64,000 bases of DNA, from positions 112 to 64,111 of the forward strand of contig WOZJ01000015.1 in assembly GCA_011620345.1 (NCBI GenBank). Reading direction: 5' to 3'. Shown piece by piece: positions 3,717 through 13,842 of this stretch; position 1 is the first letter of the stretch; every line of letters begins with the position of its first letter. Both the position numbers and the translations under genes were made by a program. Under the pieces are notes generated by a model. That model was given only the letters and a program-made list of their open reading frames with translations, did no database searches and was not told where the DNA came from. The DNA comes from Nitrospirota bacterium (lineage in GTDB: Bacteria; UBA2233).

Positions 3717-3762
3717 GGGACAAATACCCCTTTTAGGTTAAATATCGCGCTCCATCGATGAT

Positions 3763-3792
3763 TTGACACCCCATAATCCGCCTTATTATAAT
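3763..3792 (+). promoter_or_regulatory. Sigma70-type promoter for dnaA
   Basis: Exact TTGACA (3763-3768), 18-nt spacer, exact TATAAT (3787-3792), about 180 nt upstream of dnaA. Confidence 0.75.
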
Positions 3793-3971
3793 GGTTCCCT
3801 GCTGAAAAAGCGACGGCCGGTGGGTAAGCGCCAGTAAAGCAGGTTACCATCAACGGCGGATGCAGGAAACCCTAGCGGAAAGTTAGGGTTCTACATGAGT
3901 TTTATATAATATTGTTATTATATACAGTATACCAAATCACCCCCCTGTAAACCAGCCGTGTTGGAAAAATC

Positions 3972-5303
3972 ATGAATCAGCCCGATACATTGGATCACCT
4001 TTGGGAAGAAGTCCGCCAACATCTAGACCAAATCATCGGAGGGCCTAACGTCGAACGATGGTTCCAAGCGGTCCGCCTCTTGTCGGTCAAAGAGGGAGTT
4101 TATTTACTGGAGGCCTCGCACCCCTACGCAAGGGATTGGATTCAGGCCAATTACCTGGAAATCCTGGAAAAAACCCTTCGCTCCAGGCTCGGCCACGACA
4201 TATCGATATCGATCACCGAGCCGTCCACGACACTCGAGGTGTTAGAATCCAGGAACGTTCAGGCCAAAGTAGCGAGCGGAAACCTGATCGACTGGTATCG
4301 GTTTGAGAGTTTTGTCGTCGGCCCTTCCAACCAACTCGCCCATGCCGCGGCCGTGGCCGTCTCGAACGCTCCAGGCAATCGGTACAACCCGCTGTTTTTC
4401 TATGGAGGAGTGGGCCTAGGAAAAACCCACCTAATCAACGCGATCGGCCATCGAATCCTTGAAAAATTCAGGAACTTCAAGGTGTATTTCATTTCTGCCG
4501 AACGGTTCATGAATGAGCTTGTGAACTCCATCCGAACTGACAGAATCGAGCAATTTCGTGAAAAATACCGCCAGGTTCACGTGCTCTTATTGGACGACGT
4601 CCAGTTTCTCGTCGGGAAGGAAAGAACCCAAGAAGAGCTATTCCATACGTTCAACACGCTTTATGAAACGAAACGTCAGATCGTGCTCACCTCAGATCGC
4701 TTCCCAAAGGATATTCAACAGCTCGACGAGCGCCTCCGTTCGAGGTTCGAATGGGGGCTTATCGCCGACATCAAGCTGCCGGACATGGAAACCCGCCTCG
4801 CCATCTTAAGGAAGAAGGCCCAAAGAGAGGGGATCGAGCTGCCGGACGATGTCGGGCTATACGTGGCAAAGCACATCAAGTCCAACATTCGAGAGCTCGA
4901 AGGCGCGCTCATCCGGGTGTATGCCCACAGCAACCTCACCGGAGAACGAATCACGCTCGAATCGGCAAGAGAAGCCTTGGCCGATACGAACGGTGGACTC
5001 CTGGAGTCCCAAGACATTTCCCTCGAGGCGGTGATCGATGCCGTGTGCCGCCACTTCGGCATCCGGGTATCGGAGATCAAGTCTAAAAAAAGGTCTTCAA
5101 GCATCCTGAAGCCCCGACAAGCGGCCATGTATCTCGCCAGGAAGGTTACCCAGGCAAGTTTACCCGAAATCGGCAAGATTTTTGGGGGCAAAGATCATAC
5201 GACCGTCATGCACGCCGTACGGGTCGTAGAGAAGATGATCGAAAAAGACGAAAAGCTCAAAGGAGCGATCGAGGCGATCGAGCGTGAGGTCCTTTCTCTC
5301 TAA
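3972..5303 (+). CDS. dnaA: Chromosomal replication initiator protein DnaA
   Basis: YNPLFFYGGVGLGKTHL, LLLDDVQF, RLRSRF, NIRELEGAL and domain IV GGKDHTTVMHA. Confidence 0.99.
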   Translation: MNQPDTLDHLWEEVRQHLDQIIGGPNVERWFQAVRLLSVKEGVYLLEASHPYARDWIQANYLEILEKTLRSRLGHDISISITEPSTTLEVLESRNVQAKVASGNLIDWYRFESFVVGPSNQLAHAAAVAVSNAPGNRYNPLFFYGGVGLGKTHLINAIGHRILEKFRNFKVYFISAERFMNELVNSIRTDRIEQFREKYRQVHVLLLDDVQFLVGKERTQEELFHTFNTLYETKRQIVLTSDRFPKDIQQLDERLRSRFEWGLIADIKLPDMETRLAILRKKAQREGIELPDDVGLYVAKHIKSNIRELEGALIRVYAHSNLTGERITLESAREALADTNGGLLESQDISLEAVIDAVCRHFGIRVSEIKSKKRSSSILKPRQAAMYLARKVTQASLPEIGKIFGGKDHTTVMHAVRVVEKMIEKDEKLKGAIEAIEREVLSL

Positions 5304-5304
5304 C

Positions 5305-5535
5305 TCCCTGTGGAAAACATGTGGAAAACCTGTGCATATCCTGTGAATCTCGAGTGCCCCTTCTGTGGAAAAAAAGATATCCACAAGACACCGAAGAGTT
5401 TTCCATAGCCTTTCCCCAGGCTCGAAACACCCAAAAGGGGGTCTGTCGAGCCCGTTTATCGATTTTTTCCCACTTTTCCACAGGCCCTTATTCTTCTTAA
5501 ATCTGTAATTATTTAAATACCTAAGAAGAAGAGAA
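5305..5535. other. Replication origin oriC (DnaA boxes plus DNA-unwinding element)
   Basis: Between dnaA and dnaN. Consensus boxes TGTGGAAAA at 5309, 5320 and 5364 and TTTTCCACA at 5474; near-matches TGTGCATAT 5331, ATATCCACA 5377 and TTTTCCATA 5399; then GGCC, CTT-ATT-CTT-CTT and an AT-rich tract at 5499-5519. Confidence 0.88.
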
Positions 5536-5586
5536 GGGATCCGAAAAACGATAAAACAAGAAAAAATATTAGCCAAGGAACAAGCC

Positions 5587-6759
5587 ATGCAATTCGACAT
5601 TTCCCGCAAAGAGCTCCTAGACAGTCTCGTACTCATCCAGCTCTCCGGCAAGGCCCGTCAGCCGAGCCCAATATCTCAGTTTCTCAAGATCGAGGCCAGC
5701 ACACCGGACTCCCTCACTCTATCTGCATGTGACCTTGAAATCTTCTTCAACGCCAGGGCAAACGCAGACATCGCCACAGAGGGAAGTTGCCTCTTGCCCG
5801 GGCGGAAGCTCTACGATCTCCTTCGGCACTTGCCCGAGGGACCAATTCGCTTTCTTCTCGAAGAGAACGCCTACGTCTCAATCCAATGCAAAAGCTGCCA
5901 TATCCGCCTTGCCGGCTCCTCTACAGAGGAGTTTCCCTCGTTCCCAGAGCCGCACAAAGAGGCCCAAGCAAGCCTCTGTCTACCGCTTGAAGACCTCTCG
6001 GACATGCTCAAGACGGTTCTATTTTGCGTCAACGAAACGGACGCTAGAACTGCCCTCACGGGGGTTCTCGTACAAACCGTTGTCTCCAAAAAAGACCCGT
6101 CTATCTACTACCTTCGAGCCGTTTCTAGTGACGGCCATCGTCTAGCCCTGAGCCAGGTCCCGCTAAAAAACTCTCCAACGGGCCTATTCCCAGAAAAGGG
6201 GGTTCTCCTGCCAAAAAGGGCATGCCAAGAAATCGTAAGGCTTTCGCAAAACAAAGAAGACCGGCTGAGCCCTATTTCTGTCGAATTCCTACCGTCCCTT
6301 GTCCGAGTTTTCACGGATAGGCTAAGGTTCATATCGCGATATGTCGAGGCATCCTTTCCCCCCTACCAAGCCCTCCTAGATAGGCCATCGGCCACGACTC
6401 GTGTTAAACTGAAGCGTCAGGTACTTTTGGACTCGCTCAAGCGATTCCAGGCGTTCACCTCGCCGCTCTACCCAGACCTTTCCTTCCAGTTTTCCCCTGA
6501 ATGCATCACTCTAAAAAGCTACAACCCGGAGGTGGGCGAGATGCGCGAAGAGATTCCCCTGAGCGAAAACCCTGGAGAGCCGCTTTTGATTTCCTTCAAC
6601 GCACGTTCCATGCTAGAATGTTTAATGGCTTTCCCAGGACAAGAAGTATGGATTTCGCTTTGGGGAAGAGAAGAGCCCACAATCCTTCGCTCTTTGCCGT
6701 TGAAGGAGCGGGGCGAGTTGCTTACGTTGATTATGCCCATGCAGGGCCCTGAGTCTTAA
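5587..6759 (+). CDS. dnaN: DNA polymerase III beta sliding clamp
   Basis: LSACDLEI, LPGRKLYD, SSDGHRL, ISFNARSMLE and C-terminal LIMPM; position after dnaA/oriC; sequence looks divergent. Confidence 0.93.
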   Translation: MQFDISRKELLDSLVLIQLSGKARQPSPISQFLKIEASTPDSLTLSACDLEIFFNARANADIATEGSCLLPGRKLYDLLRHLPEGPIRFLLEENAYVSIQCKSCHIRLAGSSTEEFPSFPEPHKEAQASLCLPLEDLSDMLKTVLFCVNETDARTALTGVLVQTVVSKKDPSIYYLRAVSSDGHRLALSQVPLKNSPTGLFPEKGVLLPKRACQEIVRLSQNKEDRLSPISVEFLPSLVRVFTDRLRFISRYVEASFPPYQALLDRPSATTRVKLKRQVLLDSLKRFQAFTSPLYPDLSFQFSPECITLKSYNPEVGEMREEIPLSENPGEPLLISFNARSMLECLMAFPGQEVWISLWGREEPTILRSLPLKERGELLTLIMPMQGPES

Positions 6760-6782: not shown

Positions 6783-6857
6783 GGGCGGTTAACTCAGTGG
6801 TAGAGTGCCACCCTCACAAGGTGGAAGTGACTGGTTCGAACCCAGTACCGCCCACCA
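6783..6857 (+). tRNA. tRNA-Val(CAC)
   Basis: GGGCGGT...ACCGCCC acceptor stem, D-arm AACTCAGTGGTAGAGT, anticodon arm CCACC-CTCACAA-GGTGG, T-loop GGTTCGAA, encoded CCA; 75 nt. Confidence 0.96.
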
Positions 6858-6879: not shown

Positions 6880-9800
6880 ATGCCCTTGATTCTCCAAAAC
6901 CGTACCCAGATCTTAATCCAGGGGGCCATAGCAAAGGCCTTCTTTACGGCAAAGCTTATCAAGGAGGCACCCGGAAAGGTCTACTTCATCGCCATCCAAA
7001 ACGCCCAAAGCCTCCGAAACTTCCTTAACCTTCTGAAGGTCTTTTTAGGGCCAGGCACTCCCATTGCAGCTGAAGGTGCCTTTATGTGGTTTGAAGGGAA
7101 AAACGAAATTGCCCGTGCTTGGTTCTTAAACCGCCTAGCCACACCCTCCTTAGGCGTGCTCTTTCTTCCCGACGAGCTTTTGAAGCAAAAACTTCCCAGT
7201 CCAGCGGCCTACCGCAAGCTTGTCCTGTCGCTCGAAACCGGCGCCAAGATAGGCCAGGAGCACGTACTCGAACTGCTCAAGAGTTGGGGCTATGATATGG
7301 CCTTCCAAGCGGCCATGCCGGGGCAAATGGCCAAACGCGGGGGAATTCTGGATGTCTTTCCCCCGGGAGAGGAAGGACCCCTAAGGTTCGATTGGTTTGG
7401 GGGAACGCTCGATTCCATCAGGCAATTCGATGCCGAAACCCAAAGAACTGTGGCAAAGCTAGGGCGTGTAACCCTCAGGCCGGCCCTCGTCCCTGCGGAA
7501 GCACAGGGCAGTTTTTTGTCCCACCTTCCGGCAGAAAGTGTACTCGTTGTGGAAAATGTGGAAAACCTTGTGGATAATCGCGACGAACCCGCAAAAAACC
7601 CCCATCCATTTAATTGTTTTACTGGCCATGTGACAGCATTCGGTCCTGTCCACCGCCAAGAGGTGCTTGGAATATCCAGGACCATTCGACCGAGAACCAA
7701 ACCTTTCGCATCATTGGTAATTACAGCGCCAAACCATACAGAAGGAAGCCTTAAAGGACGGCTTGTCGAGTGGGTTTCCGCACTCACCTCACAGGGTCTG
7801 CGTGCCGTTTTGCTTTTAAGAACCCAACCACAAGCCGAGCGGGCCTCTTACCTCCTAGGACAGGCCAAGATCTCTTGCCGCATTCAACCCGCTCTCTGTG
7901 ATGGGGCAAGCTCTCTCCGTGTGGATCAAGAGAAAGTCATCGCTCTCGTATGTCCGGTAGAAGAAACGGGCGAGGTTATCGAAGATGAAGGGTTGGCTTT
8001 TTTAACCGAGCAGGAGCTATTCGGGAAAAAGCGTGTCCAGGCAGCCCCAAAACACCGGGCCGATGGGCTCTTCTCGTTCAAAAATCTAAATGTCGACGAG
8101 CCTTTGGTCCATATTGAACATGGCATCGGGCTTTACCGTGGGCTAAAGGCTCTTACGGTCCTAGGGGTCGAGAAAGAGTTTATAGAGCTTCTTTACGCCA
8201 AGGGAGACAAACTGTTCATCCCTGTCGAAAAATCCGGCGTTTTGATGCGCTATTTGGGAGGAAATGGCCAAACCCTAGAGCTCGCTACCTTGGGGAGCAA
8301 GGAGTTTGAGAGGGCGACAACCAAAGCCAAGAAGCGTATCCTCGAAATGGCCCAAGACCTCGTTAAGGTTCAGGCAGAGCGGGACCTTGCCAAAAAAGAC
8401 CCCTACATCGTCGAAGAAGCGCTCCTTCGAGAGTTTGAATCGCTTTTTCCTTACGATGAAACCCCAGACCAATCCAAGGCCATCGAGGAGGTCTATAGAG
8501 ATCTTGAGTCTGAACGTCTGATGGACCGGCTCATCTGCGGCGATGCAGGTTATGGAAAGACCGAAGTAGCCATGCGCGCCGCGTTCAAGACCGTTCTTGC
8601 GGGAAAACAGGTTGCCATGCTTGCCCCCACAACAGTGCTTGCTTACCAACATCTCCAGACGTTTAAAGACCGCTTTCGCTCGTTTCCTGTACACATCGAA
8701 GGCCTGAGCCGCTTTAGCTCTCCAAAGGCCATACGCTCGGCAATCCGTGGGATCTCCGATGGAAAAGTGGACATCGTTATCGGAACTCACCGCATGCTCG
8801 AAAAGGATGTTACCTTCAAAAACCTAGGTCTTTTGGTGATTGACGAGGAGCAGCGGTTTGGTGTAACCCACAAAGAACGCCTCAAGCAGTTAAAGACCGA
8901 GGTGAACATCCTTAGCCTCTCGGCCACTCCAATCCCTAGGACGTTATACATGAGCCTGTCGGGGCTCAAAGACCTCTCGATTCTTCAAACGGCCCCCTCC
9001 GAGCGTCAGCTTATAGAAACAAGGCTCTTACCCTTTTCGGAAGGAGTCATCAAGGAAGCGATCGACAAAGAACTCCAGAGAAAAGGCCAGGTGTTCTTTG
9101 TGTATAACAGGATCGATGAGCTCGAAAAATTCGCCAAGTTCCTTTCTCTACGTTTTCCGAGTGCAAAAATCGGAGTTGGGCATGCTCGGATGGACGAGGC
9201 AGAGCTTGAGGCAGTCATGGTAGATTTTTTCACAGGGAAGTTGGATATCCTCGTTTCAACCTCTATCGTAGAGTCCGGGCTGGACATCCCGACAGCAAAC
9301 ACGATGATCGTTCATAGGGCGGATCTTTTCGGCCTTTCGCAGCTCTATCAGCTCAAAGGGCGAGTTGGCAGGTCCAAGCAAAAAGGCTATTTCTACCTGC
9401 TCGTCCCCCAAGAGTCTGCGTTGACCAAACATGCCCAGGATAGGATGGACGCCATCTTGGCACACGATACAATGGGATCGAGCTTCGAGCTTGCCGTCCG
9501 AGACCTCGAGGTTCGCGGGGCGGGCAATATCCTTGGCCGGGAGCAGTCCGGGGTAATCCAAGAAATTGGGCTCGAGATGTATTTTAAACTCCTAAAGGAT
9601 ACGCTAGAGAATCTATCAAAAAAAGAAAGCGAGAAGCCCTTCTGTTCGTTTGAGCCAGAGCTTAAGCTCGAGGCCGAGGCGCTAATTCCTGCCCACTACA
9701 TGCCAGAAGAAAGAGACAGGCTCTACCACTACAGGCAAATCGCCACGGCGCCAAGCGAGCAGACGCTCGAGCGTATCCTCGAAGAAATGAAAGACCTGTA

Positions 9801-10110
9801 CGGAGACCCGCCTCCAAAAGTTTTAACCTTACTCGAGTTAAGACGTACCGGGCTTCTTGCGCAGCAATTGGGCGTCCAGAAGGTTTCTCAAACCAAGCAT
9901 GAGCTTGTTTTTGAAGTCCATCCTGACTGCCAGAGCGCCTTCGGGGAGGCTTGCCTAGAGAGGCTTTCTATGGACAAGGATGTTCGTTTTTCTAAAGAAG
10001 GATGGATTTTTTTACGAAGGTATCCAGACGTTTCCGGGATTACTCAAGCTCGTCGAATGCTTGAACTCTGGATATCGTGGACAAACCACAAGGAGGCCTG
10101 TGTATCATGA
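6880..10110 (+). CDS. mfd: Transcription-repair coupling factor
   Basis: VHIEHGIGLY (RNAP-interacting domain), CGDAGYGKT, IDEEQRFGV, LSATPIPRTL, QLKGRVGRS, DLEVRGAGNILG. The track start at 6805 lies inside the tRNA, so ATG 6880 is used (no clear SD). Confidence 0.95.
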   Translation: MPLILQNRTQILIQGAIAKAFFTAKLIKEAPGKVYFIAIQNAQSLRNFLNLLKVFLGPGTPIAAEGAFMWFEGKNEIARAWFLNRLATPSLGVLFLPDELLKQKLPSPAAYRKLVLSLETGAKIGQEHVLELLKSWGYDMAFQAAMPGQMAKRGGILDVFPPGEEGPLRFDWFGGTLDSIRQFDAETQRTVAKLGRVTLRPALVPAEAQGSFLSHLPAESVLVVENVENLVDNRDEPAKNPHPFNCFTGHVTAFGPVHRQEVLGISRTIRPRTKPFASLVITAPNHTEGSLKGRLVEWVSALTSQGLRAVLLLRTQPQAERASYLLGQAKISCRIQPALCDGASSLRVDQEKVIALVCPVEETGEVIEDEGLAFLTEQELFGKKRVQAAPKHRADGLFSFKNLNVDEPLVHIEHGIGLYRGLKALTVLGVEKEFIELLYAKGDKLFIPVEKSGVLMRYLGGNGQTLELATLGSKEFERATTKAKKRILEMAQDLVKVQAERDLAKKDPYIVEEALLREFESLFPYDETPDQSKAIEEVYRDLESERLMDRLICGDAGYGKTEVAMRAAFKTVLAGKQVAMLAPTTVLAYQHLQTFKDRFRSFPVHIEGLSRFSSPKAIRSAIRGISDGKVDIVIGTHRMLEKDVTFKNLGLLVIDEEQRFGVTHKERLKQLKTEVNILSLSATPIPRTLYMSLSGLKDLSILQTAPSERQLIETRLLPFSEGVIKEAIDKELQRKGQVFFVYNRIDELEKFAKFLSLRFPSAKIGVGHARMDEAELEAVMVDFFTGKLDILVSTSIVESGLDIPTANTMIVHRADLFGLSQLYQLKGRVGRSKQKGYFYLLVPQESALTKHAQDRMDAILAHDTMGSSFELAVRDLEVRGAGNILGREQSGVIQEIGLEMYFKLLKDTLENLSKKESEKPFCSFEPELKLEAEALIPAHYMPEERDRLYHYRQIATAPSEQTLERILEEMKDLYGDPPPKVLTLLELRRTGLLAQQLGVQKVSQTKHELVFEVHPDCQSAFGEACLERLSMDKDVRFSKEGWIFLRRYPDVSGITQARRMLELWISWTNHKEACVS
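7548..7577. promoter_or_regulatory. Three tandem DnaA boxes within mfd
   Basis: TGTGGAAAA (7548), TGTGGAAAA (7557) and TGTGGATAA (7569), all matching TTWTNCACA on the minus strand. Confidence 0.65.
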
Positions 10111-11057
10111 AACGGACGTTGGCGCACCTAGTCGTGCTTTTTTTATTGATCCAAGGCGCATCGTTTGGTACAGAAGGAGTCCTTTACGACAGGATCGTTG
10201 CCAAGGTGGGTCCAGAAATAATTACCGAAGCAGAAATCAACAGAGTGCTCACCGAGGGGTTGCCCGACGAAAGAAGCGGTCTAAGCGACGAGGAGCTTCA
10301 AAAAAAGGCGCTTGAAAAGGCGATCGAGGAAAAGCTCATACTCTTGCGCGCTAGAGAGTTTGGGATCGAACCTACAGAAAAGGATATCGAGGCCAGCATC
10401 TCCTCGGTTATGGAGCGGACAGGGATGGACCAAAGAGAGTTCGAGGCCCTTTTGGCGAAGGAGGGCCTAACCCAAGAGGCTTATAGGCGTCAAATCAAGC
10501 TCCAAATCCTTCAAAACAGGATCCTGAACAGAGAGACGGCATCCGAGGGGACGCCAGATGACCATAGGCTTAAAGAGTACTACGAAACGCACAAAGAAGA
10601 GTTCCTGGAGCCTCCAAAAGTCCATTTGCGGCAGATCGTTCTTTTCACACCCAAAAGACTCTCGAAGGAAGATCTAGAGCAAAAGGCCGCTCTCATCCTG
10701 GAGATCAAAAAGAAGGTCCAGCAAGGGGAGGACTTTGCCGAGCTTGCGAAGCGTTATTCCGAGGACCCAACTGCTCAAAAAGGGGGGGATATCGGAGCAT
10801 TCGGCTCAGGCGAGCTCATGCCAGAGCTTGAAAAAGAGGTCGAGAATAGGTCGGCCGGAGAGTTGGTCGGCCCGTTCCGATCGAACCTAGGGTTCCACCT
10901 CGTCAAGGTTGAAAAAAAACTTCCTTCCTCCGTTTTGCCGTTCGAAGAAGTGAAGGATGCCGTAAAAAACAAGCTGTTGGCCGATACTCAGCAAGAAAGG
11001 TTCGATGATTGGCTTGCGAAGGCCAAGCAAGAAATTTACATCGAGGTGCTCAAGTAG
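10107..11057 (+). CDS. SurA/PrsA-like peptidyl-prolyl isomerase (parvulin domain)
   Basis: Signal peptide, DRIVAKVG..IT, FAELAKRYSED...GGDIG and GFHLVKV; ATGA overlap with mfd; AAGGAGG SD at 10090. Confidence 0.9.
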   Translation: MKRTLAHLVVLFLLIQGASFGTEGVLYDRIVAKVGPEIITEAEINRVLTEGLPDERSGLSDEELQKKALEKAIEEKLILLRAREFGIEPTEKDIEASISSVMERTGMDQREFEALLAKEGLTQEAYRRQIKLQILQNRILNRETASEGTPDDHRLKEYYETHKEEFLEPPKVHLRQIVLFTPKRLSKEDLEQKAALILEIKKKVQQGEDFAELAKRYSEDPTAQKGGDIGAFGSGELMPELEKEVENRSAGELVGPFRSNLGFHLVKVEKKLPSSVLPFEEVKDAVKNKLLADTQQERFDDWLAKAKQEIYIEVLK

Positions 11058-11064
11058 CGTACGA

Positions 11065-13838
<2,774 letters not shown>

Positions 13839-13842
<4 letters not shown>

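Follow-up and report, generated by a model that had tools for sequence, protein, structure and literature searches.

Clusters of DnaA boxes located outside the replication origin, such as datA and the DnaA-reactivating sequences (DARS) of Escherichia coli or the clusters of Bacillus subtilis, are known from few model bacteria, and these named examples are intergenic. For instance, B. subtilis carries six extra-origin DnaA-box clusters (DBCs), all intergenic and origin-proximal, that restrain initiation (PMC3245932). Here, we describe a group of three DnaA boxes located inside mfd, the gene of the transcription-repair coupling factor, close to the origin of a bacterium of the Nitrospirota (genome G000, assembly GCA_011620345.1, lineage UBA2233). 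The window, i.e. the whole stretch of DNA that was analyzed, comprises 64,000 nucleotides of contig WOZJ01000015.1 (positions 112 to 64,111 of the forward strand), and all coordinates without a contig handle refer to it. The organisms concerned are uncultured. What is new here is an extra-origin DnaA-box cluster, as predicted from the sequence, that is embedded in coding DNA and freezes the codons in which it lies.

Sequence, geometry and rarity of the triple DnaA box

The + strand of mfd reads TGTGGAAAA-TGTGGAAAA-CCT-TGTGGATAA at 7548-7577, which corresponds to three perfect TTWTCCACA boxes on the - strand that share one orientation, their starts being spaced by 9 and 12 bp. The triple therefore satisfies both the E. 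coli-type definition of the DnaA box, TTWTNCACA (hereafter loose box), and the stricter TTWTCCACA (strict box). The boxes and the conserved sequence that precedes them are as follows, the relatives G001, L036 and L037 being presented in the next section:

7548-7556, - strand: DnaA box 1, TTTTCCACA; invariant in G001, L036 and L037
7557-7565, - strand: DnaA box 2, abutting box 1, TTTTCCACA; invariant across all relatives
7569-7577, - strand: DnaA box 3, 3 bp past box 2, TTATCCACA; TTTTCCACA in L036 and L037 (GAT to GAA, D to E), the consensus being still matched
7537-7547, strand not given: conserved 11-nt extension 5' of box 1, AGTGTACTCGT; one base differs over four lineages

The triple occupies codons 223-233 of mfd (VVENVENLVDN), 670 nt into the gene. 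A preliminary description of this DNA had reported three DnaA boxes encoding this peptide, 2 kb from oriC; both statements are borne out, the distance being 2,066 bp when measured from the oriC box nearest to the unwinding region (5474-5482). Since the boxes start at 0, +9 and +21 bp, boxes 1 and 3, which are offset by 21 bp or two helical turns, face the same side of the DNA. It had also been proposed that the triple mimics the left edge of oriC. This edge (5309-5339) reads TGTGGAAAA-CA-TGTGGAAAA-CC-TGTGCATAT and has the same orientation and similar boxes, but its phasing is 11/11 bp whereas the spacing of the triple is 9/12. Therefore, the mimicry is only approximate and has to be understood loosely.

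The genome surveyed amounts to 1.80 Mb in 72 contigs and is 96.8% complete; expected numbers of boxes were calculated from base composition. The window contains 10 loose boxes versus 2.5 expected, a number reached by none of 100 shuffles. In the whole genome, the counts (56 loose boxes versus 65 expected, 21 strict boxes versus 18 expected) are near expectation, so that boxes are not in excess over the genome as a whole. Of the 21 strict boxes, seven are grouped within 2.27 kb spanning the origin and the mfd triple (P about 6e-16), the remaining 14 being scattered singletons. Strict triples within 30 bp are expected 4e-7 times per genome, which agrees with the earlier view that three boxes in 30 bp are unlikely to arise by chance. 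Furthermore, a whole-genome scan found at least three boxes within 100 bp at the origin and at the mfd site only. Hence, apart from the origin, the mfd triple is the sole DnaA-box cluster of this genome.

The 9-mers of the triple are identical to those of the adjacent origin. Moreover, when domain IV of the DnaA protein is aligned to the E. coli 1J1V chain, it retains the equivalents of R399, P423, D433, H434, T435 and H439, residues whose roles in base contact are said to have been described by Fujikawa et al. in 2003.

Conservation of the DNA versus divergence of the protein

The lineage is isolated. Our collection includes one congener, G001 ('Nitrospirae bacterium UBA2233'), all other genomes being no closer than the same domain. 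Two additional relatives, L036 (a Logan contig) and L037 (an ENA contig), were recovered, each with its DNA contig, by a search of 5.8 billion proteins. With the genome studied here, this makes four full lineages, to which two partial ones are added; all relatives are metagenome-derived. Their Mfd proteins are 91% (G001), 82% (L036) and 51% (L037) identical to that of G000, and the guanine plus cytosine (GC) content of mfd is 35% in L037 versus 52% here. A scan of genome contigs with Mfd returned UBA2233 alone, the same scan of metagenome contigs gave nothing but RecG-like distant matches, and a second protein search, started from the most divergent member, added nothing to the clade. The organism occurs in metagenomes from oil fields, hydrocarbon, marine sediments and soil; it was found in no RNA-seq run.

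In G001, L036 and L037, the triple is found at the same codons and with the same 9/12 spacing. According to the codon alignment, codons coincide between G000 and L037 at just 33.6% of the identical, degenerate residues of Mfd. In the island of 42 nt that includes the boxes, 13 of the 14 third positions are invariant across the four genes, versus 17.6% of codons gene-wide (P 1.8e-9). With 39 of 42 nt invariant, the island surpasses even the helicase motifs, and no other 30- or 42-nt stretch of the 3.2-kb mfd gene is as conserved; the longest invariant run of mfd in the four-gene codon alignment is 20 nt long (TTGTGGAAAATGTGGAAAAC). Three amino acid replacements occur in the island: V to L through a change of GTT to CTT, L to F through CTT to TTT, and D to E through GAT to GAA. 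Each of them either spares the box bases or exchanges one version of the consensus for another. With the peptide fixed, the codon usage of L037 (where GTG represents 15% of Val codons) gives three boxes with P 1.7e-4. Codons are thus identical where synonymous sites are otherwise saturated, and therefore selection acts on the DNA.

The preliminary description had taken the triple for a site of DnaA titration or regulation within coding DNA, or for a distal arm of an extended origin. These data support the core of this proposal, selection on a DNA site embedded in a coding sequence: codons are frozen in four lineages, and the alignment of Mfd orthologues reveals conserved box bases while the protein diverges. 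A conserved Mfd motif written with different codons in relatives had been considered as the result that would contradict it; the opposite is found, since VENVEN is absent at the aligned position in 12 distant Mfd proteins and the codons of the clade are identical. Hence, the triple is held tightly enough to dictate protein sequence over a large divergence and a 17-point GC shift, and offers a clean natural example of a (predicted) DNA-binding site overriding coding constraint.

The conservation is local and extends to other lineages. At least two further, diverged metagenome lineages, known from difference counts and not base by base, match the core only (about 7537-7586) with 3-4 differences, their flanks being unlike those of G000 yet Mfd-like in translation. 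In four metagenome runs that include several co-occurring strains (X2, X11, X13 and X18), contigs break exactly at the island (window 7537-7586) because it is the only stretch common to the diverged strains. The sequences flanking the triple are not conserved among lineages. Moreover, the triple is more conserved than the left array of oriC, whose boxes 5309 and 5320 are each off by one or two bases in L037.

The extension at 7537-7547 (AGTGTACTCGT) is not a consensus DnaA box. The chance of its codons AGT-GTA-CTC is 3.9e-3 under the codon usage of L037. As a conjecture, a fourth, weak site for DnaA (xGTGxAxxx) might lie here in 11-bp phase. A reading of this extension as DnaA-trio was also considered and did not fit.

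In the 12 distant Mfd proteins, the hydrophobic strand at the aligned position leads into a helix that is variable and often DEPxR-like, and no box cluster was found in 28 distant mfd loci. The similarity to solved Mfd structures ends with the UvrB-interaction domain, about 20 residues ahead of the island. In the AlphaFold model (mean predicted local distance difference test score, pLDDT, 76.8), the island lies on a strand (221-224) and a short helix (227-231). Its pLDDT is 65 for residues 221-230, then falls to about 41, and it borders a low-confidence segment (232-269). To judge from this model, the boxes are placed where the protein would tolerate them, and impose the local peptide.

Recurrence of the module and gene context of the origin

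The abutting pair TGTGGAWAATGTGGAWAA is present in 21 of 399 other genomes, with a single copy in each, as compared with 3 for its reversed control. Several other boxes surround it in most of the twelve loci examined, and it lies beside dnaA in all three loci whose genes were read (G024, G043 and G051). In the origin of G024, the dnaA-dnaN spacer includes, directly past the dnaA stop, an arrangement box-N3-box-box-N3-box with 12/9/12 spacing (L051 5791-5832). Furthermore, three genomes from an unrelated small lineage, G291 (L050 7703-7732), G136 (L042) and G401 (L052), carry an intergenic triple, TGTGGATAA TGTGGATAA CTT TGTGGATAA, 2 nt past the coaX stop, which is the sole box set in 15 kb. 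Since the box-box-N3-box module is found both in the G024 origin and at this intergenic site, it is not mfd-specific. The 9/12 triple is thus a reusable unit, predicted to bind DnaA, and not a peculiarity of mfd. As it is compact and recurrent in other lineages, it provides a simple synthesizable object for studying the assembly of closely packed DnaA.

Several observations concern these other loci. Some 620 bp away from the triple next to coaX, a tRNA gene (8351-8441, - strand) is transcribed toward it, which echoes the tRNA-datA layout of E. coli and the tRNA-Val gene upstream of the mfd triple. G291, G136 and G401 each have 3-4 separate strong matches to the DnaA ATPase domain, on different contigs, which may correspond to several DnaA paralogues. 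In G097, an abutting box pair (L038 1501-1518) lies within an open reading frame (ORF) encoding a 614-aa membrane protein; it could be a second coding-embedded case or due to chance.

The neighborhood of the mfd triple is organized as follows:

3972-5303, + strand: dnaA (Pfam Bac_DnaA, Bac_DnaA_C, DnaA_N)
5304-5586 (283 bp): oriC, the dnaA-dnaN spacer, delimited by box scan and four-lineage alignment
5309, 5320, 5331 (weaker, TGTGCATAT) and 5342 (weaker, TGTGAATCT): boxes of the oriC left array
5364 and 5377: further oriC boxes
5587-6759, + strand: dnaN (Pfam DNA_pol3_beta, three domains present)
6783-6857, + strand: tRNA-Val(CAC) (ARAGORN and Rfam)
6880-10110, + strand: mfd with corrected start (Pfam UvrB_inter, CarD_TRCF_RID, DEAD, Helicase_C, TRCF)
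10077-11057, + strand: surA-like peptidyl-prolyl isomerase gene
11005-13842, + strand: uvrA

The left array of oriC follows an 11-bp phase, its first box being 6 nt past the dnaA stop. The box 5474-5482 has the opposite orientation and is followed by GGCCC, by TTATTCTTCTT, which is DnaA-trio-like, and by an AT-rich run that reaches dnaN. The alignment indicates that this architecture (box, GC cluster, trio-like motif) is kept in all four lineages. No DnaA box was detected upstream of dnaA (window 3720-3971, one mismatch allowed), so that the usual autoregulatory or upstream-origin cluster before dnaA seems to be absent. The cumulative GC-skew minimum of the contig is located near 7.9 kb, within mfd, at a shorter distance from the triple than from the dnaA-dnaN spacer; this signal, tens of bases over 1.5 kb, is too coarse for placing the start site.

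The order dnaA-oriC-dnaN-tRNA-Val-mfd-surA is common to all lineages. The tRNA-Val(CAC) gene, also found in L036 and L037, is 690 bp upstream of the triple and transcribed toward it. The genes mfd, surA-like and uvrA overlap and run co-directionally, and therefore the latter two probably belong to the mfd transcription unit; the gene order is the same in L036 and L037. Spacers near the origin are tiny (23 nt between dnaN and the tRNA gene, 22 nt between the latter and mfd).

The start of mfd had to be corrected. A 1101-aa ORF beginning at 6805 runs through the tRNA-Val(CAC) gene, which gives it a false N-terminal extension (MPPSQGGSDWFEPSTAHH...). Therefore, the real start is the ATG at 6880, from which mfd encodes 1076 aa, matching the relatives P0001 and P0002. 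The database protein P0003 has the same tRNA read-through artefact. In G001, ATA (Ile) is found where the ATG of mfd is expected (L031 5902-5904), which could reflect another start in G001 or an assembly error.

Candidate functions and comparison with known systems

In view of its sequence and conservation, the triple is very probably a selected DnaA-binding element. We favor a reading in which the whole 41-nt stretch 7537-7577 is a cis-acting DNA element under purifying selection that would work in the control of replication initiation, and we consider this reading probable. Whether initiation control would be the main role of the triple, as a DnaA sink or as an arm of the origin, is a more evenly balanced question. 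DnaA would have a high affinity for the triple in either of its nucleotide states. The triple might then serve as an origin-proximal sink for DnaA, duplicated seconds after firing and acting by titration or by a datA-like control. Alternatively, it might be an anchor, bridged to the oriC left array across a loop that contains dnaN and the tRNA gene, as can be compared with bipartite origins. Its location in coding DNA would probably result from the compactness of the genome, which has almost no spacer near the origin.

Various points weigh against a role in initiation control. Three boxes hold only a few DnaA molecules, and therefore pure titration would be weak. In the four lineages, no IHF-like site (integration host factor, WATCARNNNNTTR) was found within 300 bp on either side of the triple, and neither an AT-rich unwinding element nor a conserved DnaA-trio was found beside it. 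In addition, the dnaA-dnaN origin looks complete alone. In E. coli, the function of datA suffers when transcription passes through it (PMC5742627), and the mfd triple is within a transcribed gene. Finally, as synteny is invariant, proximity to the origin is inseparable from residence in mfd.

Another explanation, which we consider rather unlikely, is that DnaA bound to the triple would be a transcriptional roadblock or regulator in the tRNA-Val-mfd-surA-uvrA unit. It would tie the expression of genes for transcription-coupled and excision repair to DnaA status, and Mfd could feed back on its own transcript. The position of the triple, 670 nt into a string of co-directional, overlapping genes, is consistent with such a role. 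Mfd releases stalled RNA polymerase, and in B. subtilis it is known to assist roadblock repression. In E. coli, guaB has an intragenic DnaA box, and DnaA boxes are found at the uvrB promoter region. Complexes of DnaA with its box are reported to stop RNA polymerase at asnC as well as in datA (PMC10950094, citing Schaefer and Messer 1988, 1989). However, a site at the promoter would be a more usual solution, and the triple module, which is intergenic in another lineage and within the origin in a third one, is not specific to mfd. A scheme coupling both processes can also be imagined, but appears improbable. The triple would be a valve that senses growth and replication within a transcription unit led by a tRNA gene: RNA polymerase that has started at the tRNA-Val promoter would displace the DnaA parked on the triple, so that free DnaA at the nearby origin would track transcription flux, and conversely, DnaA would stall the polymerase in mfd and Mfd would terminate its own transcript. 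If true, this would be a self-referential loop coupling replication initiation to transcription-coupled repair (mfd-uvrA).

The remaining explanations do without any action of DnaA on this DNA. It is very improbable that the island serves another function, as an RNA element (for example an mRNA 'rDnaA box' or a structure), an internal promoter or the site of another protein. The three boxes do not account for the conserved 11 nt at 7537-7547, and an interaction of DnaA with RNA has been proposed in E. coli (PMC10989985). However, the consensus RNA fold is weak, the bases of the island being mostly unpaired, Rfam gave no match apart from the tRNA, and the 9-mer with which the adjacent origin is filled makes up the island, in exactly three copies. 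As for a promoter, a sigma-70-like TGGAAA-N17-GATAAT (9/12 match) overlaps the boxes here, but its -10-like hexamer decays to GAAAAC in L037; since this hexamer is not conserved, an internal promoter was rejected. A coincidence of coding, by which a VEN-VEN-L-VDN peptide repeat needed by the Mfd of this clade would happen to spell boxes, can be regarded as effectively refuted. The peptide is indeed conserved in four lineages and boxes 1 and 2 resemble a 9-nt tandem duplication. However, synonymous positions are frozen (P 1.8e-9 relative to the whole gene and 1.7e-4 with the peptide fixed), and amino acid changes occur solely where box bases survive. Moreover, the motif stands where other Mfd proteins usually have a DEPxR-type sequence, and borders a variable segment modeled with low confidence.

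The selected DNA element favored above shares some features with each of the known systems and differs from all of them. Like the DBCs of B. subtilis, which are thought to restrain initiation by holding DnaA (PMC3245932), the triple is a cluster outside yet near the origin. Unlike them, it is compact (30 bp), made of perfect boxes, located in coding DNA, and the only such cluster of its genome. This suggests that scans limited to the intergenic regions of compact genomes miss replication-control sites. The essential boxes of E. coli datA are arranged head-to-tail (PMC5742627), and the three mfd boxes also share one orientation. Furthermore, datA lies downstream of a tRNA gene and is crossed by read-through transcription (PMC10950094); the triple is likewise downstream of tRNA-Val. 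However, datA is intergenic and needs an IHF site between its boxes, whereas there is no IHF-like site within 300 bp of the mfd triple. DARS1 and DARS2 of E. coli have a core of three closely spaced DnaA boxes, in which box I runs opposite to boxes II and III, with a head-to-head contact (PMC5742627). Since DARS needs this inverted box I whereas all mfd boxes point the same way, the identification of the triple as a DARS is ruled out.

Bipartite origins, i.e. oriC1/oriC2 of Helicobacter pylori (PMC3479198) and of B. subtilis (PMC3245932), consist of two box clusters 1-2 kb apart around a replication gene. The same geometry is found here, the origin (5309-5482) and the triple (7548-7577), about 2 kb apart, flanking dnaN and tRNA-Val, and upstream of dnaA there are no boxes to act as another arm of the origin. 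However, the genes separating the clusters would be dnaN and a tRNA gene instead of dnaA, and the second cluster is inside a gene and devoid of an unwinding element, while the dnaA-dnaN part already includes boxes, a trio-like motif and an AT-rich region. Lastly, the roadblocks at asnC and at box 2 of datA (PMC10950094) are DnaA boxes located within a transcription unit and able to impede RNA polymerase, as the triple might be. They are single boxes for which no deep codon-level conservation is reported, whereas the mfd locus carries a triple that is frozen across a deep lineage.

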